Below, piece by piece: positions 5,821 through 63,470 of a DNA stretch of 64,000 nt. The stretch spans positions 10,205 to 74,204 of the forward strand of contig JAMCWL010000103.1 in assembly GCA_023481285.1 (NCBI GenBank), in the 5' to 3' direction. A model generated the notes under the pieces. It saw only the letters and a list, made by a program, of their open reading frames with translations. It made no database searches and was not told the DNA's origin. The position numbers and the translations under genes are program-made. Within the stretch, counting starts at the first letter, position 1. Each line of letters begins with the position of its first letter. Source of the DNA: Actinomycetota bacterium. GTDB taxonomy: Bacteria; Actinomycetota; Aquicultoria; Aquicultorales; JAMCWL01.

Positions 5821-5871
5821 GCAATTAGCAATTACCAATTAGCAAGTGGCAATTAGCAAGTGGCAATTAGC
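5821..5871. repeat. Intergenic tandem word repeat (GCAATTAG/GCAAGTGG units)
   Basis: The sequence reads gcaattagcaattaccaattagcaagtggcaattagcaagtggcaattag. It lies between the treT stop and the dapA start. Confidence 0.9.
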
Positions 5872-5882
5872 CTGCCAGCAAC

Positions 5883-5957
5883 GTCGGTCGTCGGTTGGCG
5901 CCGAAGGCGCCTCTGGGCGTCGGCGGTCGGCCGCGGTCGGCGCCTCTGGGCGATCGG
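5883..5957. repeat. Intergenic GC-rich word repeat (GTCGG/CGGTCGG units) with a duplicated ggcgcctctgggcgNcgg
   Basis: The sequence reads gtcggtcgtcggttggcgccgaaggcgcctctgggcgtcggcggtcggccgcggtcggcgcctctgggcgatcggt. Confidence 0.85.
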
Positions 5958-7262
5958 TTAGAGCGCCAGCAACTTGAATAGTTTGAGCTCGTCGATGAGG
6001 AGCCTCGTAACAAGATAGCGCTCGCGGACGAACTCCCTACCGCGACCGGCGATCTCCCGTGACTGCTTGGCGTTTTTCAGCAAGAAGGTGATCCATTTGA
6101 CATACTCTTCTTCGGTATCCGCCAGAAAGCCCCCTACGCCGTTTTTCATCTGGAGTGGTATGCCACCAGTATCACCTGCGACAACCGGCGTCCCTTTCCA
6201 TATCGCTTCCGAAACAACCAGACCGAATCCCTCTTTGATCGACTTCTGGATGACGACGTCGCTCAGTCGCTGAAAAGCATTGACTTCAAGGCTGCCGACG
6301 CCATTCAGGTTTGTGAACATAAAGATGTCCCGGTCATCCTTCGTCTCCTTTTCGATGCTGGAGTATATTCGCCAGGCCTCCGGGTCATCCATCGCCATAA
6401 AGCCGACCAGCGCCAACTGGAGGGTTGGGACCTGCTCTTTAACCTGGCGATAGATCCTTATGACGCCGATGGGATCCTTCCAGGGATCGAAGCGCGAAAC
6501 TTGAGTCAGCAGCGGACGCCTTGCGTCGACACCATATTCCGAAAGCACCTCCCGGCTCAAAGCGATGGGAAGTTCCCGGTTCTTGGTCGATAAGGGATCG
6601 ATCGCCGGTGGGATATAGAGGATTCTATTTTTCGGCATTTCGAGACCGGGTGGACGGAACTTGTCCATGGTGAAGACCGCCGCATCGTGCTCCTCCACGA
6701 ATGGGCGCAGGAAATCCCAGACAGCTTTGTTTGGATGAGCGGTGTCGATGTGGCAACGCCAGACCCATTTTGCCCCTTTGCGGCCGTAAAAATGGCGAAA
6801 GGCGGCGGGCTGTGGATCGTGCGCGATGACCAGATCGTATCGTGAACGGTCGCTCTCGGCGGATAACCTGTTATGATCCAGGTAATCTTTGATATCCTGC
6901 TTCGTCGGCGCATACTCCATCCCTTGAAGGGCATTGTGAAAGACTTTGGTCACCTCGAAGAAGTCGAAGTGTTGCGGAAGAGTCTTCCATTCCGCCTCTA
7001 TCCCGGACGAGACCTCCAGGGGGACGAGCGTCGTCAGAAGCTCCGCGACGCCGCCCCCGGATGCGGTGGAATTGATATGCAGAACCCTCAGACCCCTGAT
7101 ATCCGAAGCGAGCCGGCGTATCTCTTCCAGGACATCCCGCCCGACGATCGAGGCGTAATCGCCGAGCGCCTTTTTCTTAAGAGAAATCCGCACCGTATCG
7201 AGGCGATGCTCTCTCCCCACCATGTCCACTGGGAAACCCTCATGACGTTCCGTTTCCGCCAT
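5958..7262 (-). CDS. treT: Trehalose glycosyltransferring synthase (TreT-like, GT4)
   Basis: It aligns along its full length with what I recall of Thermococcales TreT: HINSTASGGGVAELL, FFEVTKVFHNALQG, WRCHID, VSRFDPWKDP, EGFGLVVSEA. Confidence 0.75.
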   Translation of the reverse strand: MAETERHEGFPVDMVGREHRLDTVRISLKKKALGDYASIVGRDVLEEIRRLASDIRGLRVLHINSTASGGGVAELLTTLVPLEVSSGIEAEWKTLPQHFDFFEVTKVFHNALQGMEYAPTKQDIKDYLDHNRLSAESDRSRYDLVIAHDPQPAAFRHFYGRKGAKWVWRCHIDTAHPNKAVWDFLRPFVEEHDAAVFTMDKFRPPGLEMPKNRILYIPPAIDPLSTKNRELPIALSREVLSEYGVDARRPLLTQVSRFDPWKDPIGVIRIYRQVKEQVPTLQLALVGFMAMDDPEAWRIYSSIEKETKDDRDIFMFTNLNGVGSLEVNAFQRLSDVVIQKSIKEGFGLVVSEAIWKGTPVVAGDTGGIPLQMKNGVGGFLADTEEEYVKWITFLLKNAKQSREIAGRGREFVRERYLVTRLLIDELKLFKLLAL

Positions 7263-7428
7263 AGCTCCTCCGCCTTACCGGTCAGCCACCGTGAACTCCA
7301 TCAGCCGGCAAACCTGCTTCTGCACTATCTGTTCCCTACTGGCACCGCTGTATCTCGAAATGACCACGGAGCTATGAGACAACTCTATAATCGAATCAGC
7401 ACAGAGGGATTGAAATGCGATGCTTTAG

Positions 7429-7464
7429 CCAAGGTACCAAGGTACCAGGGTACTAAGGGTACCC
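7429..7464. repeat. Intergenic tandem word repeat (GGTACC-based)
   Basis: The sequence reads ccaaggtaccaaggtaccagggtactaagggtaccc. It lies between the treT start and the pheT stop. Confidence 0.9.
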
Positions 7465-7472
7465 GGAGCTTT

Positions 7473-9893: not shown

Positions 9894-9924
9894 TACATCC
9901 TCCTACTCGTGGAAGCAAGTGCTT

Positions 9925-9963
9925 TCAGTTTACAGTTTACAGTTCTCAGTTATCAGTTATCAG
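9925..9963. repeat. Intergenic tandem word repeat (CAGTTTA / CAGTTAT units)
   Basis: The sequence reads cagtttacagtttacagttctcagttatcagttatcagt. It lies between pheS and pheT. Confidence 0.9.
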
Positions 9964-9989
9964 TAAAGGCATAGCACCCGTCCTCTAAG

Positions 9990-11044: not shown

Positions 11045-11334
11045 CTTCTATAAATAAATCCCCCGTCCTAGGACGAAGGGATTCTTCGCGGTACCACCTA
11101 AGTTAGCCATAGGGCTCTCTCATTGAAGCTTCGCTTCCGCCCGTTAACGGGGGCTCCGTCCAGGTCTACTGGTTGTCGTTACGCTTCTACCGATACAACT
11201 TTCTACCTGACGCTCCAGGGTGAAACTTCAGCCAGCACGCCTCTTGGTCGCTTCCAGCCATGGCGCCCTTCTCTTGAGAGGTTACCAACCTACTCCTCCC
11301 CTTCACAGCGTTTGCTATATTGCGGAGGATTATA
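11045..11334 (-). promoter_or_regulatory. T-box leader (Phe specifier) with an extended -10 promoter and a terminator, controlling pheST
   Basis: On the minus strand there is TGgTATAAT at 11337-11329. An AGAGA-type stem I element follows. A UUUC-A specifier candidate lies at 11225-11221. The T-box core GGUGGUACCGCG lies at 11098-11087. A terminator hairpin and U-tract lie at ~11085-11052, just upstream of the pheS RBS. Confidence 0.75.
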
Positions 11335-11375: not shown

Positions 11376-11412
11376 CCAGCTTCCAGCTTCCAGCTACTAG
11401 CTACTAGCTACC
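11376..11412. repeat. Intergenic tandem word repeat (CCAGCTT / CTACTAG units)
   Basis: The sequence reads ccagcttccagcttccagctactagctactagctacc. It lies between the rplT stop and the T-box promoter. Confidence 0.9.
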
Positions 11413-11483
11413 GGCTTCTAAAATTCACAGCCAGCAGCCTGTGGTGGAAGCTCAAAGCGCCGCTCCAAGAAAAATTTAATCGC

Positions 11484-14904: not shown

Positions 14905-14980
14905 AGTTCTCCCCTCCCTTTCGGTTGAATTCTTCTTAAGTTGACAGCTCCTGGCTCCTAGCTAGCCACCTTATGCAACC

Positions 14981-17055: not shown

Positions 17056-17112
17056 GACCCCCTCTTGGTACGTCGCCTTTAGTAATTCTAGCCCAAGGCG
17101 TAGCTCTTTTCT

Positions 17113-17150
17113 AGCAATTAGCAATTAGCAATTAGCGATTAGGAATTAGC
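17113..17150. repeat. Intergenic tandem word repeat (GCAATTAG units)
   Basis: The sequence reads agcaattagcaattagcaattagcgattaggaattagc. This is the same word as in the block at 5821. Confidence 0.9.
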
Positions 17151-17160
17151 AGGTATACTT

Positions 17161-17216
17161 CGGGTTTCTAAGTTTCTAAGTTTCTAAGTTTCGGGTTTCG
17201 GGTTTCTAGTTTCTAG
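17161..17216. repeat. Intergenic tandem word repeat (TTTCTAAG / TTTCGGG / TTTCTAG units)
   Basis: The sequence reads cgggtttctaagtttctaagtttctaagtttcgggtttcgggtttctagtttctag. It ends at the stop codon of the 1220-aa gene. Confidence 0.9.
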
Positions 17217-20200
17217 TACGGCTTCACCCATTTGGTATCCAGGTTGTTCCAATAATAGCTGAGGTAAACCATCACCGGGTCGGAAAACTTGGCGCCGTTC
17301 GACTGGAATATCCAAATACCGGTCGATCCCCCGCCGTAGTCGTAAACGGCCGCCACATCGGCCTTGCCATCCCCATTGAAGTCGCCGGGAATGATGGTTC
17401 CTTTTGAAAGATTCCAGTTCGACGTGTAGAAGACCATCTCCGGGTATGCGAAGGATGTGCCGGTCGAGGTAAATACAAAGATGGCGGTGGAAGATCCTCC
17501 GTAACCATAGAAGGCGATGACGTCATCTCTGCCGTCGCCGTTCACGTCTCCCACCGCGAACTTGGACCTCGAGGCGTCCCAATAGGGCAAATTCGAGATC
17601 ATGCTCGGATAGGATAGGTTGCCGCTTCCGTCCAAAGAGAAGAGCCAGAGGCCGGTAACGGCGCCGCCATAATCATAAACGGCGATCATGCTCTCTTTCG
17701 CTCCTCCGTCGATCCTTCCCGCGACGAGGGTCGTCCGTCCCCAATCCCAGTAAGGAGAGAAGAAGACCTGCCTCGGGTACTTAAAGGTGCCATCCGGGTT
17801 CTGCTCGAAGACGAAGACGCCCGTTGATGTTCCCCCGTATGTGTATAGGGCAAATGCTTCGTCTTTTCCGTCCCCATTGAAGTCGCCGGAGACAAGCTTT
17901 GTGCGGCTCCACTCCCAGTAGCCCGAGGTAAAAACGCGAATGGGCTGAGCATAGGCCGCTCCGGTGGACTTGAAGAGCCAAAAGGTTGATTGGGATCCGC
18001 CATCGTTGTGCAGAACCAGGAGATCGGCCTTGCCATCCCCGTCAAAATCTCCGGCGACCGTCTTCATCCTGGCAAAATCAAGGCCTGCAGTGCCCTTCCA
18101 CCAGCTCTCCGCAGAGAGGTTGTATCCCAAGGGATTGGCACCCGTCATAACCGGCTTAAAGACCCAGGCATCGAAACTCTCCCAACTATAGCTGTAAAAA
18201 GCCATAATATCGGATTTTCCATCGCCATTGGCATCATCCTTGTAAACGGGTTTCAGAGGCGCAGAACCCGAAGTCACCCCGGAAGCCACGGCCGAGTAGC
18301 CCGAGTCGTTGCCCGCTGTATCGTAAGCCCTCACCCGATAGTACTGGGTTACATTGACCGGCGGCGCGTCGGAGTAGCTCGCTGCCGCGGTCGCTGCAAT
18401 CTGAGACCAGCCAACCAGGTCCGTGCTTCTTTCCACCTTATAGCCGGATATCCCATTGGCGTCGCTTGACGCGCTCCAGTTTAGAATCAGGTTGCCACCT
18501 GAGCGAGTTACCGTCAGATTGGCCGGGTTCGTAGGCGCAACCGTATCGACCATAAGCGGTTGATACTTTACGACCTCTATATTGTTGGCCAAGTCAATGG
18601 AGTAGTAGTAGAGAGTGTGGTTGCCTTCTAGACCGCTAACTGGGATCGAATAGGATTGCCACCCACCGGGTGAAGTTGAATCCCATTGGTAGTACGTCGT
18701 TGCCGTCTCATCGGGAGTAAGAGAGATCGAAGGCGTCGTCTTAAACCAGCCGTTACTGCCATCGGGAGCTGCTGGGTTCGTGGAAAGGCTGGTTCGGGGC
18801 GGGGTTGTATCGGGCAATGATTGCGCATAGCCAAAGACGCCGCCGCCAGCCGTACCGGCGAAGATATTGCCATCATTTATAAAGTTGGCGGAGATCGCCA
18901 TCGAGCTCACACTCATATTCGCAAGATCGGTACCCACCGCGCTCCAGTTGGCGCCCGTATCGACCGACTTGAAGACGCCCCCGCCCGTACCGGCGAATAT
19001 AGTGCCGTCCGTCGCAAAGTTCGGCGAGACGACGAGAGACTTTATCGAGGTATTGGCAAGACCGGTGCTCGCCGGGGTCCAATTGAGACCACTATTGATC
19101 GACTTAAAGACGCCGCCGCCACTCGTGCCGGCGAAGATCGTCTTATCGACTGCGAAGTCGGGAGAAATAGCAAAAGATATCACGTAAGTATCGGTAAGAC
19201 CGCTATTCACCGGAATCCAGTTGGCGCCGCCGTTTGTCGATCTAAAAGCGCCGTTCCAGGTGCCGGCAAAGATGGTACTGTCCGTCATGTAGCTTGGAGA
19301 GACGGCCAAGGCGTATATTTGGTTGACGGTCAAGCCCGCATTTGTCGGATTCCAGTTGACCCCGCCATTTGTCGACTTAAATACACCGCCACCCATGGTA
19401 CCGGCAAAAATACTCCTGTCTATTCCATAGCTTGGAGAGATGGCCATGGAGTAAACGTACGTATTGGTCAAGCCGGTATTCGACTGGCCCCAGGTAGCGC
19501 CCCCGTCGGTTGACTTAAAAATCCCACCGCCGGTATATGTGCCGGCAAAGATCGTCCTATCATTCGCATAACCGGGAGAGATAGTCAGAGCGTATATTAG
19601 AATATTAGTTAAGCCGACGTTAAGCGGGCTCCAACTCGTTCCACTATTGGACGACTTGAAAACGCCACCACCGTATGTGCCCGCAAAGACCGTGCCATCA
19701 GTTGCGTAGTTTGGGGAGATGGCGACGGACTGCGCGATCGTTTTGATAATGCCGGAATTCGCCATGCCCCACACGGCGCCCCCATTGGTCGACTTATAGA
19801 CGCCGCCCCCATATAGACCCGCGAAGATGGTGCCGTCAGCCGCGTAGTTGGGAGAGACGGCAAGAGAATAGAGGTCTCCCCTGATGAGACCGGAGTTCAT
19901 CTCGCTCCAGTTGGTTCCGCCATCGATCGACTTGGAGACGCCACCGCCGACCGTGCCGGCGAAGATAGTATTGTCGGTTGCATAGTTGGAAGAAAGAGCG
20001 AGAGATCTTACGGAAGTCCCGACAAGGCCGGTGCTTGCCGGGTTCCAGCTTGCGCCGCCATCGATCGACTTAAAGACCCCGCTATCGGTGCCCGCAAAAA
20101 CGGTTGCACTATTGAAGAGCGCAAGGGATCTGACAAGAAGATTGGTCAGACCCGTGCTTGCCAAGCTCCAATTGGCACCGCCATCAACCGACTTAAAGAC

Positions 20201-20875
20201 CCCGCTATTCGTCCCGGCGTAAATCGTTCTGTCCGTTGTAAAGCTAGGAGAGAAGGCGAAAGAGTAGATACCGTTAGTGGTAAGACCGGCATTTGCCGCA
20301 CTCCAGGTGGCGCCGCCGTCAATTGACCGATAGACGCCGGAGCCACCCCAGACGCCGGCAAAGACCGTCCTGTCGCTCGCAAAGTTGGGAGAGATGGTGA
20401 GGGCTTTGATCTCGACAAACGCGGGGATGCCGGTATTGAGCGCGCTCCAGTTGGCACCGCCGTCAGTTGATCCGTAGACCCCATTGCTCCCGGTGCCGGC
20501 AAAGACCGTCCTGTCGCTTGCAAAGTTGGGAGAGATGGCAAGAGACAAGATGTTTACATTAGCAGGTAGACCTGTGTTTGCCGCACTCCAACTAACGGCG
20601 CCACCCGTTGACTTATAGACTCCACCGCTCTCCATTCCAGCGAAGAGAGTATTGTCGGTTGCATAGTTAGGAGAGACGACGAGAGAGTTGATAAGGCCAC
20701 CCTCCGGCCCGCCAGTCGTCCATTGATTAATCCCGGCTTCCGCTTCACCGGTCATCAGCAGATTTGCACCTATGACCGTTGAGAAGAAAACCAAGAAGGC
20801 GAGCGTATTGGAAAGGAGCTTAAACCCTCTCTTTTGAGGCAAGACGGATAAAAAAAGTCCCTGCGGGATGCCCAC
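17213..20875 (-). CDS. Large secreted/surface protein: ~14 BNR (Asp-box) propeller repeats, a beta-sandwich region, an Fn3 domain, and FG-GAP/VCBS-like repeats
   Basis: There is an N-terminal signal/TM segment. About 14 units of ~45 aa follow, each containing S.DGG..W and ISPN(F/Y)A.D.T.FAGT. An Fn3 domain follows (NLTVTRSGGNLILNWSASSD...YYRVRAYD). Six GDFNGDGK(A/D) FG-GAP-like units complete the protein. Confidence 0.8.
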   Translation of the reverse strand: MGIPQGLFLSVLPQKRGFKLLSNTLAFLVFFSTVIGANLLMTGEAEAGINQWTTGGPEGGLINSLVVSPNYATDNTLFAGMESGGVYKSTGGAVSWSAANTGLPANVNILSLAISPNFASDRTVFAGTGSNGVYGSTDGGANWSALNTGIPAFVEIKALTISPNFASDRTVFAGVWGGSGVYRSIDGGATWSAANAGLTTNGIYSFAFSPSFTTDRTIYAGTNSGVFKSVDGGANWSLASTGLTNLLVRSLALFNSATVFAGTDSGVFKSIDGGASWNPASTGLVGTSVRSLALSSNYATDNTIFAGTVGGGVSKSIDGGTNWSEMNSGLIRGDLYSLAVSPNYAADGTIFAGLYGGGVYKSTNGGAVWGMANSGIIKTIAQSVAISPNYATDGTVFAGTYGGGVFKSSNSGTSWSPLNVGLTNILIYALTISPGYANDRTIFAGTYTGGGIFKSTDGGATWGQSNTGLTNTYVYSMAISPSYGIDRSIFAGTMGGGVFKSTNGGVNWNPTNAGLTVNQIYALAVSPSYMTDSTIFAGTWNGAFRSTNGGANWIPVNSGLTDTYVISFAISPDFAVDKTIFAGTSGGGVFKSINSGLNWTPASTGLANTSIKSLVVSPNFATDGTIFAGTGGGVFKSVDTGANWSAVGTDLANMSVSSMAISANFINDGNIFAGTAGGGVFGYAQSLPDTTPPRTSLSTNPAAPDGSNGWFKTTPSISLTPDETATTYYQWDSTSPGGWQSYSIPVSGLEGNHTLYYYSIDLANNIEVVKYQPLMVDTVAPTNPANLTVTRSGGNLILNWSASSDANGISGYKVERSTDLVGWSQIAATAAASYSDAPPVNVTQYYRVRAYDTAGNDSGYSAVASGVTSGSAPLKPVYKDDANGDGKSDIMAFYSYSWESFDAWVFKPVMTGANPLGYNLSAESWWKGTAGLDFARMKTVAGDFDGDGKADLLVLHNDGGSQSTFWLFKSTGAAYAQPIRVFTSGYWEWSRTKLVSGDFNGDGKDEAFALYTYGGTSTGVFVFEQNPDGTFKYPRQVFFSPYWDWGRTTLVAGRIDGGAKESMIAVYDYGGAVTGLWLFSLDGSGNLSYPSMISNLPYWDASRSKFAVGDVNGDGRDDVIAFYGYGGSSTAIFVFTSTGTSFAYPEMVFYTSNWNLSKGTIIPGDFNGDGKADVAAVYDYGGGSTGIWIFQSNGAKFSDPVMVYLSYYWNNLDTKWVKPY

Positions 20876-22575: not shown

Positions 22576-22773
22576 CTTCTGGTACCGTAGTATCTTAGTA
22601 CCCTGGTACCTTGGTAAAATGTTTGAGACGATCGCGAGCTTCTTGCACCAACTGCATCTATCAGCTGTTTTTGAGACTCTGCATTCTAGCCGCTGAATGG
22701 AGCCATGCAGAAAGATTGCTTCACCATAAACTTTCTACCACGGTACCAAGAGACTAAGGTACTATACTACTAC

Positions 22774-29812: not shown

Positions 29813-29909
29813 CGCCATTCTAACCATGCCTCCCATTTTCAGTTCGAACAACCTGGACCGTTTCTCAAAGTATTATTCTTTAGCAAATCGGCTTGCGCCC
29901 TAACATTAG

Positions 29910-29969
29910 AACATTAGGGACGTAGTTTCCTATCTTTCCTATCCACACACTCACCGCATAACTACATAT
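29910..29969 (+). repeat. Copy A of a ~60-nt dispersed element, inverted relative to copy B at 59265-59323
   Basis: The sequence reads aacattagggacgtagtttcctatctttcctatccacacactcaccgcataactacatat. Confidence 0.9.
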
Positions 29970-33628: not shown

Positions 33629-33853
33629 GCGATTTCTTCATTCCCTTATTTACGGCTATTCTCAGGCCGTTACTGACCGACTGCGGACCACCGACCACCG
33701 CCTTACCGGCGGTCGGCCGTCGTCCATCGGCGCGCGTAAGGTGCGCCTAAACAAATTCGAGCTGGGATGACCCAGCCCGGGCGGTCCGGGCGCCGCGTGT
33801 GCGGCGCGTGATAAACCCAATAAATATTATCTGACGTGGTGAAAGGTGTCAAG

Positions 33854-33932: not shown

Positions 33933-33960
33933 GGGGCAAGCCGGTGGCGTGCCCTTTTTT
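33933..33960 (+). repeat. REP-like hairpin (GCAAGCC-GGTG-GCGTGC) followed by T6
   Basis: The sequence reads ggggcaagccggtggcgtgcccttttt. Confidence 0.6.
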
Positions 33961-34559: not shown

Positions 34560-34713
34560 TGGCGACGATTATAACACGACGCGGCGCAGCCGAATCGACC
34601 GATGACCGCCGACAAACCGTCCGCCGCCCTTGCATCATTACGAGGGGAGGTGGTGACGAAGCAACTTCTACTGTCTAATGGCTCGCCCGCTTGTAGAACG
34701 GGCCCTATATCCC

Positions 34714-34774
34714 CTACTGCCTACTGCCTGCTGCCTACTGCCTGCTGCCTACTGCCTGCTGCCTACTGCCTACT
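34714..34774. repeat. Intergenic tandem word repeat (CTACTGCC / CTGCTGCC units)
   Basis: The sequence reads ctactgcctactgcctgctgcctactgcctgctgcctactgcctgctgcctactgcctact. The ClC gene's TAG stop is one of the repeat units. Confidence 0.9.
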
Positions 34775-36028: not shown

Positions 36029-36048
36029 GATAGCTATCAGCTATCAGC
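36029..36048. repeat. Intergenic tandem word repeat (AGCTATC units)
   Basis: The sequence reads gatagctatcagctatcagc. Confidence 0.8.
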
Positions 36049-39263: not shown

Positions 39264-39294
39264 AGACATTAGACGTTAGACATTAGACATTAGC
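39264..39294. repeat. Intergenic tandem word repeat (GACATTA units)
   Basis: The sequence reads agacattagacgttagacattagacattagc. Confidence 0.9.
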
Positions 39295-39525
39295 TAGTGG
39301 CTGTTTCGAGCTTCGAGAGAACCTAGCGCCTTGCGGTATATCTCGTCGTCCTCGAGAGCCAGTGCGATCTTGAAATGACGGCGAGCGATATCTCGCTTGC
39401 CCAAGTGGAAGTTGCTAAGTCCGAGCCCATAATGGGCATAGTGATTGGTCGGATTAGATAACGGCTTGCGTGCTGGGGGCTTCTTCCCTAATATATAGAA
39501 GAATTTTAGCGGACAGGAGTTTTAC

Positions 39526-40821: not shown

Positions 40822-40980
40822 GGCTTTGAATTCCGCGGCGAACTTCAGCTTGTTCTGACCCGAACGGACCAAGTGGAATGTGATCGAGCCATTGACAGCT
40901 CCTTTGCTTTCATAATGCTTTTCTGACAATATATACAATATATAAAAGTAATCGCCAACCTGTTCTAAAATGGAGGCGAT

Positions 40981-42585: not shown

Positions 42586-42608
42586 AAGCACGCCGGTGGC
42601 GTGCTTCT
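42584..42608 (+). repeat. REP-like hairpin overlapping the GT39 stop codon
   Basis: The sequence reads agaagcacgccggtggcgtgcttct, followed by gtaccttagtaccttg. Confidence 0.7.
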
Positions 42609-42683
42609 GTACCTTAGTACCTTGTTTATATGCGGTTAAGAGGTGGACGCTCTTGGCAGAGGTATTGATGAACCAAGATATAC

Positions 42684-44950: not shown

Positions 44951-45034
44951 AGCGCAAGCCTCCTCGCGAAGAGATTAAAACCCAGGTTATTTTATCGACA
45001 CTAAACGGCCGGAAGTTTAGCCGGCAAGGGAGAA

Positions 45035-45060
45035 AGTTACTAAGTTACTAAGTTACCAAG
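45035..45060. repeat. Intergenic tandem word repeat (AGTTACTA units)
   Basis: The sequence reads agttactaagttactaagttaccaag. Confidence 0.85.
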
Positions 45061-45063
45061 ATA

Positions 45064-45990
45064 CTATGGGACTAACGGCGCAAGGACGGGTTTCCTTTCC
45101 GGCACTATCGCGGGCGCATATGCCGGAGCTACGACCGATATCGCCCCGGGATGGACGGTGATCTCGGCTGGTAGTTGGCTTACGTACTCCCCATCGGCGT
45201 AGATCGGAAAGTCGCGATCCGCTTCCAGCCTGACCGCCTTGGTCTTGAGCATCCTCACCGCACTCGATTTTACGTGAGTCCCGTTAAACACGCGAGGAAA
45301 CATTATCATAAAGTGGGGTATCGAAATGTTTTCCACTATGCAGACGTCCAGGACGCCATCGTCGAACCTGGCGTCGGGCGTTACCCTCATGCCTCCCCCG
45401 TAGCTGGGGCCGTTGCCAACGGCAACCATCATGGCCTTGAGTTCTACTCTCCCGTCAGGCGTTGTGATCGAGAAGTTGGCGGCCTCGAAGCCGAAGAGCG
45501 TTCTTATCGTGGCGTAAACATAGACCTCCCGCCCCTTGATCCATGAGGTATCGTTCGCCGCCTTTGTGACCAGCGAATCAAAGCCCGCTCCGGCCACCTG
45601 GAAGAAGTAGCGCTCGTTCACCCGGCCGACATCTATTGAAACGGCGGTTCCCGATAGCGCCAACTTGGTCGCCTCGGCGGGCTTCAGGGGGATGCCCAAA
45701 CCAGCCGCCAGATCGTTTCCTGTGCCCGCCGGAACTACCGCAAGTTCAGTATCCGATCCGAAGATGCCGTTGAGCACCTCCCCAGCCACGCCGTCTCCCC
45801 CGACCGAGAGGATGCGAGAAAATCCCCGCTCGGCCGCGTGGTGGGCCAGTTCGATCGCGTGGCCCCTCCGCCGGGTAAAAGCGATCTCGTAATCCACGCC
45901 CATGTTCATGAGCGTGCCCGTTACCTCCGAGATCACACGCCTCGCTCTGCCCCTTCCCGATGTTGGATTAACGATTACAAAGAGCCTCAA
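45064..45990 (-). CDS. Diacylglycerol/lipid kinase (YegS/BmrU/DagK family)
   Basis: NPTSGRGRA, VGGDGVAGEVLNG and PAGTGNDLA are present. Confidence 0.8.
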   Translation of the reverse strand: MRLFVIVNPTSGRGRARRVISEVTGTLMNMGVDYEIAFTRRRGHAIELAHHAAERGFSRILSVGGDGVAGEVLNGIFGSDTELAVVPAGTGNDLAAGLGIPLKPAEATKLALSGTAVSIDVGRVNERYFFQVAGAGFDSLVTKAANDTSWIKGREVYVYATIRTLFGFEAANFSITTPDGRVELKAMMVAVGNGPSYGGGMRVTPDARFDDGVLDVCIVENISIPHFMIMFPRVFNGTHVKSSAVRMLKTKAVRLEADRDFPIYADGEYVSQLPAEITVHPGAISVVAPAYAPAIVPERKPVLAPLVP

Positions 45991-46114: not shown

Positions 46115-48067
46115 TTGCCGATTATCAAGACGACCTGTACTAGAGATTGTCCGGATGCCTGCGGCCTTCACGTCAAGGTGGAAGGCGGCCGAGCCACCTC
46201 CATCAGAGGAGCCCCCGAGCACCCAATTACCAAGGGCTTTGTCTGCTATAAGCAGCGGTACTTCCTGGATCGAGTTTACGGGAAGCGTCGTGTAAAATCT
46301 CCGCTCCTCCGTGAGGACGCCGGTTGGCGGGAACTCGACTGGAAGCAGGCCATTGGCCTTCTCGCCGGACGCATCGATATGGTTCTTGATCGCAGCGGCC
46401 CCTTAAGTCTCTTTCACTACCAGGGCAGTGGTTCGCTGTCGGCAACGAAGCTCTTGAACAGGCGATTCTTTAACCTCATAGGCGGTTCGACCTTCGCGAC
46501 CGGCAGTCTTTGCGGTGGCGCTGGGATGGCCGGGCAGAGACTTGATTTCGGCGCCAGGACCGCACACGATCCCCTGGACCTCGTAAACAGTAAGATGATA
46601 ATCATCTGGGGGAGGAATCCGGCCGCTACTAACATCCATCAAATGGGGCTAATTAGAGAAGCGAAATCCCGAGGAGCGACCGTTGCGCTTATCGACCCCC
46701 TGCCAACCGAGACGGCCCGCTATGCCGACTACCATCTGAAACCATCGCCCGGAACGGATGTTTTTCTGGCGCTCGCTATAGGAGCGGCGCTCATTGAGAT
46801 GCGCCTGGTGGACCTCGATTTCGTCTCAGAATATACCGACGGGTTCGCCGCATACGAGTCGATGATAAACAAGTACTCGATCGATTGGTTATCCCGCCGC
46901 TGTGACGTGCCCGCAATACAGATCGAGGAGGTGGCAATCGAATACGGTCGGATCAAGCCGGCCACCATACTGCTTGGCTGGGGTCCCCAGAGGTACGCGT
47001 GGGGCGGGGAGACCTTTCGGCTCATCGACGCCCTAGGGGCGCTCACCGCGAATCTCGGTGTTTCCGGCGGGGGTGTAAATTATGACATGGACAGCGCCAG
47101 GCACTTCGACGCCTCCCTTAAAGGTGATGACGGCCGTGTGACGGCGAGGCGCGATATATCGAAAGCCCGGCTTGGCATGGAGCTCCCTCTCTGCGATCCT
47201 CGTGTGGACGTGGGTATCGTCTGCGGAGCGAACCCGGCGGTCCAGTCGCTTGATGCACGGGAAACAGCCCAAGCGCTTTCCGATATCGGCTTTTTAGCGG
47301 TCATCGATTACGAGATGACAGAGACGGCCAAGCTAGCCGATCTGGTCCTGCCGTCCACAACATTCTTGGAAGAAAACGATGTCGTCGGCTCTTTTTTCCA
47401 CCACCATGTCGGCTGCGTCAACCGGGCGATTGATCCAGTAGGCGACTCAAAAAGCGACCTCGAGATCTTTCAGCTCGTGGCCGAGAAACTCGGCGTCTCC
47501 GGACTTGAAGGAAGTACTAACGAGTGGATCGATCGACTGCTGAGACCGGTCGAGGACGACGGCATCACCCGACAAGCGCTTTCCAAGCGGACCTGGATCC
47601 GGACTTCCGAACCGTGCGTACCGTTCGAGGGCGGTCGTTTTCCGACGAGTAGCGGGCGCTTCAACTATGTCAGTGAGGTGCCGCAGGTCTGGGGATTCGA
47701 TAGCGATTATCCGCTCGTCCTTTTGTCCACCCATGCCAGGGAGTGGTTGCACTCAGAGATGACGGAAGAGCAGTTGAACGCTCCGCTGGTCCTGAAAATC
47801 TCCCCGGCGACGGCGTCGTCCGCCGGTCTTCAAGAAGGCGACCTTGCGAAGGTTTCTTCCCGAAGCGGTTCATTTAGAGCCGTCGTCAAGCTCGATGAGC
47901 GCGTCAGAGACGACACCATCGCTTGTCTTCAAGGGAGACCCTTGCCCGACGGCCCTAACGCGTCGACCGCCCAAATCATCAGCAATATCGGGGAGAATGC
48001 GTGCTACTACCAGACCCGCGTGAAGCTAGAGCGCCTTCGGCCGACCACCGACCGCCGACCACCTTAG
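46115..48067 (+). CDS. Molybdopterin (bis-MGD) oxidoreductase family protein, cytoplasmic type
   Basis: TTG start. The N-terminal 4Fe-4S motif is CTRDCPDACGLHV...C. The molybdopterin and C-terminal dinucleotide-binding domains follow. The last ~9 codons read into a CCGACC word repeat. Confidence 0.8.
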   Translation: MPIIKTTCTRDCPDACGLHVKVEGGRATSIRGAPEHPITKGFVCYKQRYFLDRVYGKRRVKSPLLREDAGWRELDWKQAIGLLAGRIDMVLDRSGPLSLFHYQGSGSLSATKLLNRRFFNLIGGSTFATGSLCGGAGMAGQRLDFGARTAHDPLDLVNSKMIIIWGRNPAATNIHQMGLIREAKSRGATVALIDPLPTETARYADYHLKPSPGTDVFLALAIGAALIEMRLVDLDFVSEYTDGFAAYESMINKYSIDWLSRRCDVPAIQIEEVAIEYGRIKPATILLGWGPQRYAWGGETFRLIDALGALTANLGVSGGGVNYDMDSARHFDASLKGDDGRVTARRDISKARLGMELPLCDPRVDVGIVCGANPAVQSLDARETAQALSDIGFLAVIDYEMTETAKLADLVLPSTTFLEENDVVGSFFHHHVGCVNRAIDPVGDSKSDLEIFQLVAEKLGVSGLEGSTNEWIDRLLRPVEDDGITRQALSKRTWIRTSEPCVPFEGGRFPTSSGRFNYVSEVPQVWGFDSDYPLVLLSTHAREWLHSEMTEEQLNAPLVLKISPATASSAGLQEGDLAKVSSRSGSFRAVVKLDERVRDDTIACLQGRPLPDGPNASTAQIISNIGENACYYQTRVKLERLRPTTDRRPP

Positions 48068-48100
48068 TACCTTGGTACCTTAGTACCTTGGTACCAAGTA
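48062..48100. repeat. Intergenic tandem word repeat (GGTACCTTAGTACCTT units)
   Basis: The sequence reads ccttagtaccttggtaccttagtaccttggtaccaagta. It contains the stop codon of the molybdoenzyme gene. Confidence 0.9.
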
Positions 48101-48173
48101 AGGGCACGCCAATGGCATGCCCTTTAGAGTACGACAGCGTGCTCTAAATACATAAGCACGCCGGTGGCGCGCT
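48101..48173. repeat. Cluster of three REP-like hairpins
   Basis: The hairpins are agggcacgcc-aatg-gcatgccct, tagagtacg-acag-cgtgctcta and agcacgcc-ggtg-gcgcgct. Confidence 0.7.
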
Positions 48174-48716: not shown

Positions 48717-48943
48717 TTTTCAAATCACCTCGATCGACTTGATACCCACAAACGACCGCGCATCACCGCCGTCAAGATAAATACAAGCGTTCAACGGCTT
48801 CGCCGAGGAATGAAATGACGAGGCAAGAATAGGTGATAACCGCCAGGTAAGCGCTAGCGGCTAGGGGCCAGTTGCTAGTGGCTAATTCGGTGGATCGGTG
48901 GTCGGCGGTCTGTGTCGGTGGTCGTTAAAGCTTTACGGCAGGG

Positions 48944-52286: not shown

Positions 52287-52337
52287 GCTGATGGCTGACG
52301 GCTGATGGCTAATGCCGGATAGCTGATAGCTGATGGC
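52287..52337. repeat. Intergenic tandem word repeat (GCTGATGG / GCTGATAG units)
   Basis: The sequence reads gctgatggctgacggctgatggctaatgccggatagctgatagctgatggc. Confidence 0.9.
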
Positions 52338-52453
52338 TTCCTTTTTTTCGCTTGCTTAACCTGAGTAGAAGGCCCGGTCGCCTATTTATTCTATCATTCA
52401 TTTTTTTAAGCTAACATACGGTTTACGTTTCAACATTAAGAAGGGTGATCCGG

Positions 52454-54706
52454 ATGAAAAGCGGTATCAGACAGAGACTGATGATTATATACTTGATCGT
52501 CATCCTCCCGCTCACGGCGCTGATAGGTTATAACTACTACCACTCCTACCAGAACCGAAGGGACCACGCGATCAGCGAGCAATATCATATGTCCAGGCTG
52601 GCCGGGAGCAGCTTCGAGCGCTTCGTCGCCGACGTTGTCGAGACCAACCGGGGCACGGGGACGGTAATCTACTCGAACCGGATGAACATTCCCCAGGCGA
52701 ACGCGTTTCTCGCCTCCGCCAAGCAGGGTTATCCCATGGTCAACATGTTCTACGCCAACGAAAGCGGGATAGTGACCGCATCGTCGACGCCGGGCCTCAT
52801 CAACGCCAATCTAACGACCATGCCCCAGTATGCCAGATTGGCCAGCGGGGGTGCGGAATGGACGATCACCAACTTCCAACAGAACGCGAATGGTGAGTTC
52901 GGTTTCACCATATTGACCGCGGTCCGCAGCGGCGGAAGCCTCGTGGCCGTCTCGGGATGTCAAGTTAATAGCCGTGATATCCAGCAGATAATCCCCAAGG
53001 ACTTGCTGAATGGAACGGTTATCCTGACCGACGCCCAGGGAAATGTCGTCTTCAACAGCGCAATTCCCAACATGGGCGTCTCGGAGAGGAACTGGAGTAC
53101 TTATGAACCAGTTAGAACGGCCCTCAAGGGCGCCAGTTTCAAGAGCGGATCGACGGCTTTGCCGGAGACCGACGGGGATTATACCGGCTCCTTCGTCCCG
53201 ATGACCTCGACAGGGTGGACCGCCGGCTATTTCACTCCCTCGGTTCAGGCGTTTGCTCACGTCAAGAACGAGGCCATGGTATCGCTCTTCATAATTCTTA
53301 TCGTGATCGCCATTTCAGCGGCGATCGGCCTCTTCTACATCAAGAGAATCAGCCGCCCGATAATCGACCTTTCCGCCAGGTCGGTCGAGATCGGCAAGGG
53401 CGATTTCAGCAGAACGGTTGAGGTCAAGACAGGCGACGAAGTCGAGCTCCTTGCCCGGAACTTCAACCGGATGCAGGGGGATCTGAAGAAGAACTTCGAG
53501 GATCTCTCCAGGCTCATCGAGGCGTCGAGATCGGTCAATTCCGCGCTCGACGTAAGGTCCGTCTCGGAGTCGGCGGCCGCCTACCTGAAAGATATCCTTG
53601 GCGCCGGAAACATCATCGTCAGAATCAAGGACCAGGACACCGGCAAGTTCTCGGTAATCTTTTCCAACGGCTTGGATGAGCACGAGGCCGAGCGCATCGC
53701 GCGGGCGTCCGACGCCTTCATGGGCTCCGCCGCCGAAGATACGCAAGCGGTCAGCTTTTATAATCTGGTCGATATCGGCTTCACTCCTGGAGTTTTCAAA
53801 GAGAGCGGCGTTAAAGCGCTCGTCTCGCTGCCGCTCGTCAGCAACAACCGGCTGATCGGGCGGATCGACGCCCTCATGACCGAGACGACCGGCTCGAAGC
53901 TCGGCCGCAGCGAGATGGGACTTGCCGTCAGTTTCTCCCAGCAGGTCTCCGTCGCCATCCAGAACGCCAAGCTCCTCGAGCGGGAGAGCTACATAGCGGA
54001 CGTTCTGCAGAAGAGCCTGCTTACCGCGCCGCAGCATATACCCGGCCTCGACATCGGCCTCGCCTATCAACCGGCGATAAGCGGTACCAAGGTCGGCGGC
54101 GATTTCTACGATTTCATCATATTCGATGAGGAGAGGGTGGCGATCGTGGTGGGCGACGTCTGCGGCAAAGGGATCGAGGCCGCAAGGTACACGGCGCTGG
54201 CCAAGAATGCCGTTCGCTCCTTCGCCTCTGAAGACCCGTCCCCCTCAAGCGTCGTCGAACGGGCGAACAAGCTGATCTGTGGAGAAAGCGACTCATTCCA
54301 CTTTATAACCCTCTTTTACACCCTGATCGACCGGAAGACCGGCAAAGTGAGATATGCAAGCGGTGGGCACCCGCCGGCGCTCTTCTTCGATCACCGAGGA
54401 GACTGCGTTAACGAGCTACTCTCCCCCGGCATGCCCCTTGGAATCGATCCCGGGGTCTCCTATGAAGAGAGGGAGTTCCTCCTCGATGATGGGGACAAGC
54501 TCCTGCTCTATACGGACGGGCTTACCGAAGCCAGACGCGACGATGAGATGCTCGGCCAACGCGGCGTGATACAGGCCTTCCTCGACCTCAAGAAGCACCG
54601 GGCGACCGATCTGGCCCCGAAGCTCGTCGAGGCCGCTCGCAGCTTCGTCGGCGGCAGCTTCAACGACGACATCGCCGTCATCGCCATAGAGCGCAAGGCA
54701 GCATAG
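52454..54706 (+). CDS. Membrane sensor PP2C phosphatase (Cache-like ectodomain, HAMP, GAF, SpoIIE/PP2C)
   Basis: A TM helix, a ~250-aa ectodomain and a second TM helix are followed by HAMP (RPIIDLS...FNRMQ), GAF and a C-terminal SpoIIE-type PP2C domain (GGDFYDF...VGDVCGKG...YTDGLTEA). I prefer the ATG at 52454 over the GTG at 52445. Confidence 0.8.
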   Translation: MKSGIRQRLMIIYLIVILPLTALIGYNYYHSYQNRRDHAISEQYHMSRLAGSSFERFVADVVETNRGTGTVIYSNRMNIPQANAFLASAKQGYPMVNMFYANESGIVTASSTPGLINANLTTMPQYARLASGGAEWTITNFQQNANGEFGFTILTAVRSGGSLVAVSGCQVNSRDIQQIIPKDLLNGTVILTDAQGNVVFNSAIPNMGVSERNWSTYEPVRTALKGASFKSGSTALPETDGDYTGSFVPMTSTGWTAGYFTPSVQAFAHVKNEAMVSLFIILIVIAISAAIGLFYIKRISRPIIDLSARSVEIGKGDFSRTVEVKTGDEVELLARNFNRMQGDLKKNFEDLSRLIEASRSVNSALDVRSVSESAAAYLKDILGAGNIIVRIKDQDTGKFSVIFSNGLDEHEAERIARASDAFMGSAAEDTQAVSFYNLVDIGFTPGVFKESGVKALVSLPLVSNNRLIGRIDALMTETTGSKLGRSEMGLAVSFSQQVSVAIQNAKLLERESYIADVLQKSLLTAPQHIPGLDIGLAYQPAISGTKVGGDFYDFIIFDEERVAIVVGDVCGKGIEAARYTALAKNAVRSFASEDPSPSSVVERANKLICGESDSFHFITLFYTLIDRKTGKVRYASGGHPPALFFDHRGDCVNELLSPGMPLGIDPGVSYEEREFLLDDGDKLLLYTDGLTEARRDDEMLGQRGVIQAFLDLKKHRATDLAPKLVEAARSFVGGSFNDDIAVIAIERKAA

Positions 54707-54762
54707 AACTTGGTACCTGTAACTTGCAAGGCAGCGTAGAACTTGCTACTTGCTACTTGCCG
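54693..54762. repeat. Duplicated 20-nt motif plus CTTGCTA tandem words between convergent genes
   Basis: gcaaggcagcAtagaacttg lies at 54693-54712 and gcaaggcagcGtagaacttg at 54726-54745, followed by ctacttgctacttgc. Both gene stops fall inside this block. Confidence 0.9.
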
Positions 54763-59262: not shown

Positions 59263-59264
59263 AG

Positions 59265-59581: not shown

Positions 59582-59591
59582 GCCAGGGATC

Positions 59592-60980: not shown

Positions 60981-61082
60981 TTAATCTTGTAGGCGGCACG
61001 CCGCTTGCACGCCCTTTTATGACAACAGGCACGACACCGGCTTCGGACTCGCCACCGGCATGCCGTGCATAAATCAAGTATC

Positions 61083-61693: not shown

Positions 61694-61722
61694 TTGGCGA
61701 TCATTGATGATCGTGGTAAGAT
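61694..61722 (+). promoter_or_regulatory. Candidate promoter for tRNA-Gln
   Basis: TTGGCG, a 17-nt spacer and TGgTAAGAT. Confidence 0.4.
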
Positions 61723-61778
61723 ATCAAATCGTCACGTGCGCGGACTTTCCCGGGCCGTAGACAGCTTCGACGCAATAG

Positions 61779-61849
61779 TGGGGGATCGTCTAGTGGTAGG
61801 ACAGCGGACTCTGGATCCGTCAGCGAGGGTTCGAATCCTTCTCCCCCAG
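61779..61849 (+). tRNA. tRNA-Gln (CUG)
   Basis: Acceptor stem TGGGGGA/TCCCCCA (U1-A72, typical of Gln) and anticodon loop CTCTGGA. Confidence 0.8.
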
Positions 61850-61857
61850 CATAAGTA

Positions 61858-61880
61858 GGGGCACGCCGATGGCGTGCCCT
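61858..61880 (+). repeat. REP-like hairpin, near-identical to the one at 48101
   Basis: The sequence reads ggggcacgccgatggcgtgccct followed by ttagagtac. The same flank occurs at 48125. Confidence 0.7.
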
Positions 61881-61963
61881 TTAGAGTACCCACCGGCGTG
61901 CGCTTGGTTGCCAACAGCTTGCCCCTGAAACAAATCACGACCCCACGATTCGACATTCGTTGC

Positions 61964-63430
61964 TTAATCCGTACTTACGGCCAGTTGGCGAGCTTTGGCG
62001 ATGCGGTCTATGGCGCGTTCTCGTCCGAGGAGTTCGAGGCTTTCGAAAAGTGGAAGGCTTACCGTCCGGCCGGTTACAGCCACCCTTACCGGCTGGAAGA
62101 CTTGCTTCGCTTTAAGACCCATCTCCTCGGCTACGCCTCGGAGAGCTTGTTCGATTTCGTCATGTTTGAATTCCGCAACTTCGAGAAGGACGATTCGCCC
62201 GCGACCAAGCACGTCGAACGCGTTGTCGGTTCGAAGAACTTTATCGATAGCTTCGGGATCGTATTTTACGGCCGTAAATAGAAAGTCGCTTAAGCCAATG
62301 ATATCGGTGAGCAGTTCCATGCGCTCGCGAGCGACGGAGACGAGCTTCTCAAGCCAGGTCCGGTCGACCTTTGAGAGGTCATAGCCCGCCCTCTCCAGGA
62401 AGGGAACCACCCGATCAACAAGCATGGCCGGCGAAATCTCTCTGATGTAGTAGCCGTTCATCCACTTGAGCTTGACGACGTCGAAGACGGCCGCCGTCTT
62501 ACCCACCCTTTCCAGAGAGAACTTCTCTATGAGCTCGTCTTTCGAGAAGATGGTCGTTTTTTCGTCCCACGACCATCCCAAAAGAGCTAGGTAGTTTACC
62601 ATAGACTCTGGTAGAAAACCCTGGTTGCGGTAGGACTCCACGCCTACGGCTCCATGGCGCTTGGAGAGCTTGGCCTTATCCGGTCCAAGAATCATCGGCA
62701 GGTGGGCGTATTCCGGCTCTTTCCAACCGAGAGCCCGGTAGACTTGGATCTGCCGGGGCGTGTTTGAAAGATGATCTTCACCTCGAATGACGTGGGTTAC
62801 CTTCATATCGTGGTCGTCGACGACAACGGCAAAGTTGTAGGTTGGGATGCCGTCCCCACGTACCATGATGAAATCGTCGAGATGGCGGTTCTCAAACGAG
62901 ACGTCTCCTCTAATATGGTCGTGTACGACGGTCTCCCCTTCGTCCGGCAGGTAGAACCTGATGACCGGCGGTCGGCCTTCCTGCTCGCAGCGACGGCGTT
63001 CTTCCTCAGTCAGCCGCGAGCATCGGCGGTCGTACATGGGAGTTTCCTTGCGCTCGAGCTGTGCTTTCCTCATCGCGTCGAGCTCTTCCGTCGTGCAGTA
63101 ACAGCGATAAGCCTTCCCCTCGCCTAGCAGACGGTCGGCGGCTTTGGCGTATTTTTCCAAGTGGTCGGTCTGTCGGAACGGGCCTTCGTCCCAGTCAAGA
63201 CCCAGCCAGCTCATCGAGTCGATGATCTGGGCGATCGCCTCTTCGGTCGAGCGTGTCCGGTCCGTGTCCTCGATGCGAAGGATGAACTTCCCCCCGCGAC
63301 GCCGGGCGAAAAGCCAGTTAAAAAGGGCGGTTCTCGCGCCTCCAATGTGCAGATATCCGGTCGGGCTTGGCGCAAATCTGACCCTGACCTCGTTTCGCAT
63401 TAGACTTTCTTGTTCCTCTCCACTTCCCAC
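61964..63430 (-). CDS. gltX: Glutamate--tRNA ligase
   Basis: VRVRFAPSPTGYLHIGGARTAL (HIGH motif) and KLSKR (KMSKS motif) are present. Confidence 0.95.
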   Translation of the reverse strand: MGSGEEQESLMRNEVRVRFAPSPTGYLHIGGARTALFNWLFARRRGGKFILRIEDTDRTRSTEEAIAQIIDSMSWLGLDWDEGPFRQTDHLEKYAKAADRLLGEGKAYRCYCTTEELDAMRKAQLERKETPMYDRRCSRLTEEERRRCEQEGRPPVIRFYLPDEGETVVHDHIRGDVSFENRHLDDFIMVRGDGIPTYNFAVVVDDHDMKVTHVIRGEDHLSNTPRQIQVYRALGWKEPEYAHLPMILGPDKAKLSKRHGAVGVESYRNQGFLPESMVNYLALLGWSWDEKTTIFSKDELIEKFSLERVGKTAAVFDVVKLKWMNGYYIREISPAMLVDRVVPFLERAGYDLSKVDRTWLEKLVSVARERMELLTDIIGLSDFLFTAVKYDPEAIDKVLRTDNAFDVLGRGRIVLLEVAEFKHDEIEQALRGVAEEMGLKAKQVFQPVRVAVTGRTVSLPLFESLELLGRERAIDRIAKARQLAVSTD

Positions 63431-63438
63431 TCTCCATT

Positions 63439-63470
63439 CAAGATTCGACTTTCAAGTTTCGACTTTCTAG
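63439..63470. repeat. Intergenic tandem word repeat (TTCGACTTTC units)
   Basis: The sequence reads caagattcgactttcaagtttcgactttctag. It ends in the stop codon of the cupin gene. Confidence 0.85.

Follow-up and report, generated by a model that had tools for sequence, protein, structure and literature searches.

The intergenic gaps of a 64,000-nucleotide (nt) stretch of an Actinomycetota metagenome-assembled genome (MAG; contig JAMCWL010000103.1, hereafter the window) carry short arrays of heptamers and octamers repeated head to tail, which occur in excess over chance, adjoin the 3' ends of genes, have no counterpart in the syntenic gaps of related genomes, and share a bias toward words that contain TAG. 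These arrays belong to a described, still unexplained kind of bacterial microsatellite, the long simple sequence repeats, and what is distinctive here is their density, the octamers, and the TAG-rich related words. On balance, they are best regarded as microsatellites born by slippage and tolerated beside gene 3' ends.

The arrays were found using Tandem Repeats Finder (TRF), the gap sequences were also read directly, and a fixed criterion (period 6–10, at least 2.8 copies, non-redundant) was applied for counting. Sixteen arrays were thereby obtained, 14 of them in the 10.2 kb of non-coding DNA outside the long open reading frames (ORFs) and two in the 53.8 kb of coding DNA. When the gaps were shuffled 100 times with preservation of dinucleotides and counted in the same manner, a mean of 0.09 arrays and a maximum of 1 were obtained against the 14 observed, which bears out the intergenic enrichment expected in the first-pass annotation of this DNA. 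The period is 7 in 10 of the 16 arrays, 8 in five, and 6 in one, so that most units are of 7 nt with 8 nt as the second class, and copy numbers range from 2.4 to 8.9 over all sites. Every period-7 or period-8 array is intergenic or located at a gene 3' end, and of the two coding exceptions, one is an in-frame hexamer and the other covers the final 15 nt of a PP2C gene. The earlier statement that coding regions lack these words holds for tandem copies, but single copies are present in coding DNA, and the GC-rich (rich in guanine and cytosine) array 48041–48063 encodes the last residues of a molybdoenzyme. A tandem array was recognized by TRF and direct reading at each of the coordinates listed previously, of which three (22740, 42609, and 36029) are weak, with approximately 2–2.5 copies. 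The arrays comprise approximately 8% of the non-coding DNA; with the weaker sites included, 17 of the 45 gaps of at least 30 nt (38%) carry one, so that their presence in "nearly every" gap was an overstatement. Their density is 23.4 per 100 kb, while 854 kb taken from 52 unrelated genomes showed a patchy distribution with a mean of 4.8 per 100 kb. The head-to-tail units, the excess over chance, and the confinement to non-coding DNA with heptamers commonest are what is looked for in long simple sequence repeats, and the arrays are assigned to that kind on this basis.

Independent contigs from seven further samples, consisting of Logan unitigs from five runs and two European Nucleotide Archive (ENA) assemblies, were 99.85–100% identical to the window and aligned to it without gaps through the arrays at 5820, 7429, 9925, 11376, 17112, 33680, 48041–48095, 48887, and 63437 (arrays are named by their first position; Table 1). 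The few single-nucleotide polymorphisms between the samples were all located outside the arrays. The same array sequences in independent assemblies indicate that the arrays are real. A further perfect array, (AGAGGCT)x4.1, which contains CTAG, was observed at positions 3252–3280 of contig L060, 3.6 kb past the right end of the window, where it lies between ribBA (20 nt past its stop) and ribH (30 nt ahead of its start). This indicates that the trait continues beyond the window.

The positions of the arrays are tied to gene ends, as had been proposed together with their non-random and intergenic nature. Their distance to facing stop codons has a median of 19.5 nt and a mean of 33 nt, versus a median of 94.5 nt and a mean of 109 nt to facing start codons; seven arrays overlap a stop, and a single one (52287) lies in a clearly divergent gap, while those in convergent gaps include 42606, 48061, and 54741. 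In eight genes the stop codon is a TAG located on a repeat unit or no more than 9 nt away from it. Termination on a repeat unit was confirmed for the ClC gene, the 1220-aa gene, the molybdoenzyme gene, both PP2C genes, and the cupin gene, to which the gene at 45064 can be added. Two arrays of the word GCAATTA (5820 and 17112) end exactly where a −35-like element starts, that is, at the predicted promoter 17113–17085 and at a TTGCTC element separated by 15 nt from TATAAT upstream of dapA. These two sites agree with the role in promoter spacing that was suggested earlier, but the 3' ends of genes are where most arrays are found, and convergent gaps hold several. The arrays thus fill the signal-free part of each gap, against the upstream gene.

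The words themselves were examined for stop triplets, in which they had been described as rich. A stop triplet on either strand was detected in 12 of the 17 consensus units against 48–53% expected from the k-mers of the remaining non-coding DNA, which is not significant. What stands is a bias toward one triplet: TAG/CTA recurs in 14 of the 19 arrays against 17–19% expected (p ~3e-7), and TTAG/CTAA recurs in 6 of 19 against approximately 6%. TAG is also the commonest stop codon of the window, as the 53 genes end in 23 TAG, 22 TAA, and 8 TGA, and it is again the commonest in two relatives, L054 (8 of 19 genes) and L056 (13 of 23). Such a preference is unusual for a bacterium with a GC content of 55–58%, where TGA normally dominates. 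The words fall into a few superfamilies, which are TARCTGR (arrays 9925, 36032, 52287, and 11376), the octamers TAMCTTRG/AAACTTAG (7429, 22579, 22740, 42606, 45034, 48061, and 17164), TAGCAAK (5820, 17112, and 54741), and the GC-rich CCGACCA without stop triplets (5883, 33680, 48041, and 48887). Such related words, together with the TAG bias, argue for non-random seeds.

Conservation was evaluated by comparing syntenic gaps. The PheT of the window is identical to MCL5292739.1 from an Actinomycetota MAG, and its nearest relatives, 68% (L054) and 64% (L056) identical, provided the syntenic loci; the latter genome is labelled Candidatus Aquicultorales. A contig scan with PheT gave only relatives of 48% identity or less, which were of no use for orthologous gaps. 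No relative of intermediate divergence was found among the PheT matches. The pheS–pheT, pheT–treT, and treT–dapA gaps of L054 (134–248 nt) contain no arrays. The gaps of L056 are 11–77 nt long, and the only clear array there is (CTATCGA)n, an unrelated word located elsewhere, in the rplT–pheS gap. The arrays are therefore absent from the orthologous gaps in which their presence was to be looked for, which indicates that they are young relative to the divergence of these genomes. Array density within the clade is 23.4 (window), 13.4, and 4.5 per 100 kb. An unclassified bacterial MAG (L030, JBBAAC010000002.1, GC 59%) holds nine varied heptamer arrays in 22 kb, one of them in its own pheS–pheT gap, which are similar to those of the window in style with words that are not TAG-rich.

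Polymerase slippage in a 7-nt register has been proposed for long simple sequence repeats, and the excess of heptamers has been ascribed to it (Mrazek, Guo & Shah 2007, as summarised in PMC4679880 and PMC4692102). In the explanation favoured here, with about even confidence, the arrays of the window would be generated on the spot through small tandem duplications and slippage during replication in a register of 7 or 8 nt, sometimes 14 or 16 nt, and would turn over fast on the evolutionary scale. A period that is not a multiple of three, with units bearing stops, would be lethal within genes, so that arrays would persist only where selection permits; as promoters and leaders would take the downstream part of each gap, they would pile up at the 3' end of the upstream gene. 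The TAG-rich words would best be accounted for by seeding from stop-codon-proximal sequence in a lineage with TAG as its main stop, and where an array covers a gene end, only units carrying a stop would keep the protein C-terminus intact. The arrays would have no sequence-specific function.

Local duplication is suggested by several patterns within the arrays. Array 11376 (CCAGCTT x2, CCAGCTA, CTAGCTA x2) and array 9925 (CAGTTTA x2, CAGTTCT, CAGTTAT x2) contain runs in which the same variant unit is repeated, alternating double units generate higher-order periods of 14 or 16 nt in arrays 34713, 5820, and 48061, and TRF detected two-copy proto-arrays at 29902, 29926, and 40926. The 33-nt duplication at the PP2C genes, which comprises last codons together with a TAG, shows that seeding from stop-proximal sequence happens. 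Adjacent units were no more alike than distant ones over the whole set (1.09 vs 1.07 mismatches). The predicted folding of the arrays is heterogeneous, as those with a palindromic core fold well and others have a minimum free energy of 0, with Z-scores from −6.1 to +1.8, which rules out a common RNA or DNA structure and hence a single structural role.

Some observations weigh against the slippage explanation. The TAG/CTA enrichment of the window is not a general property of heptamer arrays, since TAG/CTA is contained in only 6 of the 41 period-7 and period-8 units of the 854-kb comparison set. When all rotations and both strands are allowed, 11 pairs of arrays share a unit with at most one mismatch, whereas 1.4 such pairs were expected and 3000 random draws never gave more than 7. 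The octamer family TAMCTTRG occurs at seven sites, six of which are sense-oriented and lie 0–20 nt past the 3' end of a gene or tRNA. Seeding from stop codons leaves the arrays with TAG on the antisense strand (5820, 17112, and 39264) not obviously explained, and slippage as the generator is inferred. Moreover, the copy-number polymorphism that had been suggested as a check was not found, as the arrays are identical among the contigs of the seven samples; this is a weak test because these populations differ by at most 0.15%.

An alternative is that the arrays serve as multimeric platforms, in DNA or in the 3' or 5' untranslated regions of RNA, for one or a few oligomeric nucleic-acid-binding proteins of this lineage, thereby constituting a regulatory or nucleoid-organising network. 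Precedents exist, since the repressor MetJ, a ribbon-helix-helix protein, binds tandem 8-bp metboxes, and HutP and TRAP bind UAG or GAG triplets set at a fixed spacing. This idea is supported by the words, which are related non-randomly within the four superfamilies, and by the consistent sense orientation of the octamer family just past gene and tRNA ends, the recurrence of TAG at a period of 7 or 8 in most arrays, and the identity of one array with TAACTGA, a word known from three other phyla. Furthermore, in three unrelated high-GC metagenome contigs (L067, L090, and L122; GC 59–70%), a small conserved ORF (M..TRVQTGVRLESRLVKVLKALATELDLSLGDLLEGIV...) that weakly matches a ribbon-helix-helix family (PF13467, E 0.003) is directly preceded by (GGTACCTT)n, which may represent an autoregulatory operator of tandem octamers there. 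The word can thus plausibly serve as an operator. No homologue of this small protein was found in the window, however, and several arrays are located in the convergent gaps mentioned above, where there is nothing to regulate. The units within arrays are degenerate, their positions are not conserved in relatives, and the flanking genes are a mix of housekeeping functions. A metagenome scan for GGTACCTT gave 86 contigs ranging from 24% to 70% GC, many of them probably eukaryotic, with an orientation leaning toward sense-after-gene (approximately 14 to 6 by crude ORF calls). In viral contigs the octamer gave 2 matches against 1 and 6 for permuted controls, so that no special recurrence is claimed for it. 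The binding-protein role contemplated in the first-pass annotation is supported by the non-random kinship among the words, but we consider it unlikely overall. A more specific form, in which the superfamilies would be platforms for a lineage-specific oligomeric protein that marks or processes transcript 3' ends or insulates neighbouring genes, is more doubtful still. A post-transcriptional regulator has been proposed for the TAACTGA repeats (PMC4679880). If the platform explanation were true, it would give a function to heptamer repeats that have been seen sporadically across bacteria since 1990.

The arrays might otherwise have been selected as compact all-frame translation stops or insulators, because a stop-bearing unit of period 7 or 8 places stops in all three frames within three units; such pads would halt ribosomes that read through a leaky TAG or have frameshifted, and would uncouple neighbouring cistrons. 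A stop is found on the sense strand in 13–15 of the 17 arrays for which a sense strand is definable, against approximately 31% expected per strand, the arrays hug stop codons, and TAG, on or beside which eight genes end at an array, is the commonest stop of the clade. Much of this enrichment follows from how gene ends are defined: seven arrays overlap the gene-defining stop, where a sense-strand stop is guaranteed, and without them the excess is marginal (6–8 of 10). In a period-7 array the next in-frame stop comes 7–14 codons on, which makes a poor tandem stop, while the GC-rich arrays contain no stops at all, some arrays lie in divergent gaps or have TAG on the antisense strand, and the relatives with the same TAG usage do without arrays. 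Support for this role, which had also been put forward from the sequence, is accordingly weak, and we regard it as rather improbable. Another earlier suggestion, that the arrays are hypermutable contingency loci whose copy number switches the expression of flanking genes by phase variation, is highly improbable: short-unit tandem repeats are its classic substrate and arrays 5820 and 17112 end at −35-like positions, but most arrays lie downstream of genes instead of occupying promoter spacers or 5' coding regions, their neighbours are housekeeping genes (pheST, rplT, dapA, and tRNAs), and no indels were detected in arrays 5820, 48041–48095, 48887, and 63437 across the seven samples, which have polymorphisms elsewhere, so that phase-variable loci were rejected as a class. 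Lastly, an assembly or scaffolding artefact has practically no chance of being correct, for although the two longest perfect arrays (17164 and 34713) are points where short-read Logan unitigs stop, as is expected of k-mer assembly, the sequence is identical between the NCBI MAG, the unitigs of five runs, and the two ENA assemblies.

Comparison with the described repeat classes places the arrays as follows. Long simple sequence repeats have units of 5–11 nt with heptamers commonest and a sporadic distribution (Mrazek, Guo & Shah 2007, via PMC4679880 and PMC4692102), and three Actinobacteria were reported among the ten genomes richest in such repeats (Mrazek 2007, as summarised in PMC4679880). 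The arrays of the window are likewise arranged head to tail, longer than chance, led by heptamers, mostly intergenic, and sporadic. They differ in that octamers are almost as frequent as heptamers, that many related words richer in AT and in TAG/CTA occur in a genome of 55% GC, and that the lineage is an uncultured, Aquicultorales-like one of the Actinomycetota. In the heptamers GGGAATC of Xanthomonas and GGGGAYT of Nostoc/Anabaena, 89–93% of sites are intergenic, with a mean distance of approximately 28 nt to the upstream and approximately 160 nt to the downstream ORF; divergent genes seldom have such repeats between them, the neighbouring genes belong to all functional classes, and no function could be demonstrated (Rehm et al. 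2015, PMC4692102). The window arrays are similarly nearer to the upstream ORF, at the two median distances given above. In those genomes, however, one dominant G-rich word is capable of forming a G-quadruplex and prefers four copies, whereas the arrays here are heterogeneous and no consensus unit contains GGG, which rules out G-quadruplex heptamer repeats.

Direct repeats of TAACTGA are known from marine Beggiatoaceae, some cyanobacteria, and Bacteroidetes; they are not found in the syntenic gaps of close relatives and break assemblies (MacGregor 2015, PMC4679880). In the Beggiatoaceae genome this word dominates, with 169 sets, and lies a few nt from the start codon, where it replaces the Shine-Dalgarno sequence (PMC4679880). 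Array 9925–9964 contains two exact TAACTGA units with one-mismatch variants and is likewise intergenic, forward, and upstream of a start; one-mismatch relatives (TAGCTGA and TAGCTGG) occur in three more arrays. Relatives with the same gene order again lack the repeats, and assemblies again break in arrays. Unlike in that system, TAACTGA is one of approximately 20 arrays here, it lies 31 nt from the pheT start with pheT keeping its GGAGGA, and most arrays of the window adjoin stops rather than starts. The window therefore shares the word identity of the TAACTGA system only and not its genomic habit.

In cyanobacteria, short tandemly repeated repetitive (STRR) sequences constitute distinct heptamer families dispersed at many intergenic sites of one genome. 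The several heptamer families of the window are similar to the STRR sequences of Calothrix and Anabaena, but the words and the phylum differ, so that these are an analogue and not a case of membership. In the MetJ metboxes, too, 8-bp units stand in tandem, two to five of them, with a core that is palindromic and comparable with the GGTACC of the octamer family, but the metboxes are conserved and located in the promoters of one regulon, while the window arrays lie past genes and are not conserved. The simple sequence repeats that mediate phase variation in host-adapted pathogens share slippage-prone short tandem units, but their units are of 1–5 nt, they are placed in the promoter spacers or 5' coding regions of surface genes, and they vary within populations, none of which holds for the arrays. 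CRISPR arrays (23–47-nt repeats with unique spacers of similar length) are ruled out because the units are of 7–8 nt and contiguous, and repetitive extragenic palindromes (REP), bacterial interspersed mosaic elements, or miniature inverted-repeat transposable elements, which are dispersed units with an imperfect palindrome or terminal inverted repeats, because the arrays are direct repeats without conserved flanks; the array anatomy does not fit iterons. The highly iterated palindrome (HIP1-type) word GCGATCGC was not over-represented in the window, with 4 sites versus 3.6 expected. A cyanobacterial origin of the DNA was rejected on this ground and because PheT falls within the Actinomycetota, nearest to Candidatus Aquicultorales. 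The earlier view that no known class looks like this is thus superseded, as heptamer-led long simple sequence repeats, including those of Xanthomonas/Nostoc, the TAACTGA repeats, and the tandemly repeated heptanucleotides of Calothrix, have been described (PMC4679880, PMC4692102).

Table 1. Tandem arrays of the window, with unit, copy number, means of detection, and setting.
Position	Strand	Unit and copies	Detected by	Setting and remarks
5820..5871	-	AGCAATT x7.4, higher-order unit 14 nt	TRF	Sense strand reads CTAATTGC/CACTTGC; 86 nt past stop of TreT-like glycosyltransferase, 78 nt ahead of dapA start; last unit overlaps -35-like TTGC
5883..5957	.	GC-rich CGGTCGG / 17-nt repeats	TRF (sub-repeats 5906-5957, period 17; 5923-5941, period 10)	Directly past TreT-like stop; stop-less GC-rich class
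7429..7463	-	Octamer TACCTTGG/TACCCTTAG x4.2	TRF	Sense orientation, 9 nt past pheT stop
9925..9964	-	TAACTGA x2, then GAACTGT, AAACTGT, AAACTGA	TRF + sequence	Forward orientation between pheS stop (25 nt) and pheT start (31 nt)
11376..11416	-	Heptamer TAGCTAG/AAGCTGG x5.9	TRF	67 nt past rplT stop; just upstream of promoter region of pheS T-box leader (11066-11315, Rfam)
17112..17151	-	TAGCAAT x5.7, same word as 5820	TRF	56 nt ahead of GT2 start; ends where -35 hexamer of predicted promoter (17113..17085) starts
17164..17217	-	AAACTTAG x3, AAACCCG x2, AAACTAG x2	TRF	Last unit is TAG stop of 1220-aa gene; one Logan contig ends inside
22579..22616	+	Octamer TACCGTAG/TATCTTAG/TACCCTGG/TACCTTGG x4.8	TRF	2 nt past tRNA-Gly
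22740..22765	-	Weak GGTACC-type, ~2-3 degenerate units	Sequence	8 nt ahead of tRNA-Cys; sole reverse-oriented member of its word family
33680..33720	.	Weak GC-rich repeats, GACCACC x2.1 + CGGTCGG	TRF (33686-33700)	
34713..34774	-	CAGTAGG/CAGCAGG x8.9, higher-order unit 14 or 28 nt	TRF	Contains last 12 nt of ClC gene and TAG stop; three Logan contigs break here
36032..36048	-	TAGCTGA x2.4	TRF	39 nt past MacB-like stop, 24 nt ahead of ClC start
39264..39293	-	CTAATGT x4.3	TRF	71 nt upstream of start of archaeal-type S-adenosylmethionine synthetase; abuts TAG stop of 36-aa ORF (39294-39404, -)
42606..42625	+	TACCTTAG ~x2.3	Sequence	20 nt past stop of PMT-family gene; directly 3' of GCACGCC..GGCGTGC hairpin
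45034..45066	-	TAACTTAG x4.1	TRF	Holds TAG stop of gene 45064-45990
48041..48063	+	GC-rich CCGACCA x3.3	TRF	Within last molybdoenzyme codons (...RPTTDRRPP*)
48061..48095	+	TACCTTAG/TACCTTGG x4.4, higher-order unit 16 nt	TRF	First TAG is molybdoenzyme stop; terminator-like hairpin next
48887..48924	-	GC-rich CCACCGA x5.4, no stop triplets	TRF	19 nt past stop of 91-aa ORF
52287..52338	+	GCTGATG/GCTGATA x7.4	TRF	Divergent gap, 160 and 106 nt from the two starts
54693..54760	.	33-nt unit x2.1 + ACTTGCT x2.9 (54741-54760)	TRF	33-nt unit duplicates last codons and TAG stop of + strand PP2C gene; ACTTGCT array carries TAG stop of - strand PP2C gene; these convergent PP2C/SpoIIE sensor genes are 39 nt apart
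63437..63471	-	14-nt unit x2.5 (heptamer TTCGACT)	TRF	Cupin TAG stop at array edge

Sites below the count thresholds are the two-copy proto-arrays AACATTAG x2, TTTCCTATC x2, and ACAATATAT x2 (29902–29943 and 40926–40944), together with a degenerate GCTCCTR run in the thrS–PMT gap (14945–14970). The 36-aa ORF 39294–39404 (−) beside array 39264 reads MGKRDIARRHFKIALALEDDEIYRKALGSLEARNSH and may be a gene remnant. The genes of the window include dapA, pheST behind a T-box leader, rplT-rpmI-infC, thrS, ffh, a ClC channel, an S-adenosylmethionine synthetase, and two PP2C sensors. Although the genome is bacterial, the synthetase (37975–39192, −) belongs to the archaeal type (Pfam PF01941, E 4e-158). 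A 141-nt tandem repeat (20283–20590; 2.2 copies, 72% matches) was detected inside the 1220-aa BNR/FG-GAP/sortilin-like gene, and this is a protein-level repeat unrelated to the short arrays. A family of palindromic hairpins, GCACGCC-NNTG-GCGTGC, often in the form GGGCACGCC..GGCGTGCCCTTT and followed in two copies by TAGAGTAC, was also observed at 33936–33952, 42588–42604, 48104–48120, 48156–48172, and 61861–61877, and in degenerate form at 60996 and 61047. Every copy is located in a gap past a gene or tRNA end, with 15 strand matches versus 2.6 expected, and two adjoin GGTACCTT-type arrays. They look like a REP-like or terminator family.

In practice, short-read assemblies of this organism are broken up by the arrays, which can also displace called gene ends. 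Observations of heptamer-led intergenic microsatellites in scattered bacteria go back decades, but no origin or function of these repeats has been generally accepted. The window adds to them an uncultured, deep-branching actinobacterial lineage with a set that is unusually dense and varied and includes TAACTGA. Any explanation must account for the position at gene 3' ends, for words that are related non-randomly, and for a strong TAG/CTA bias within a clade whose main stop codon is TAG.

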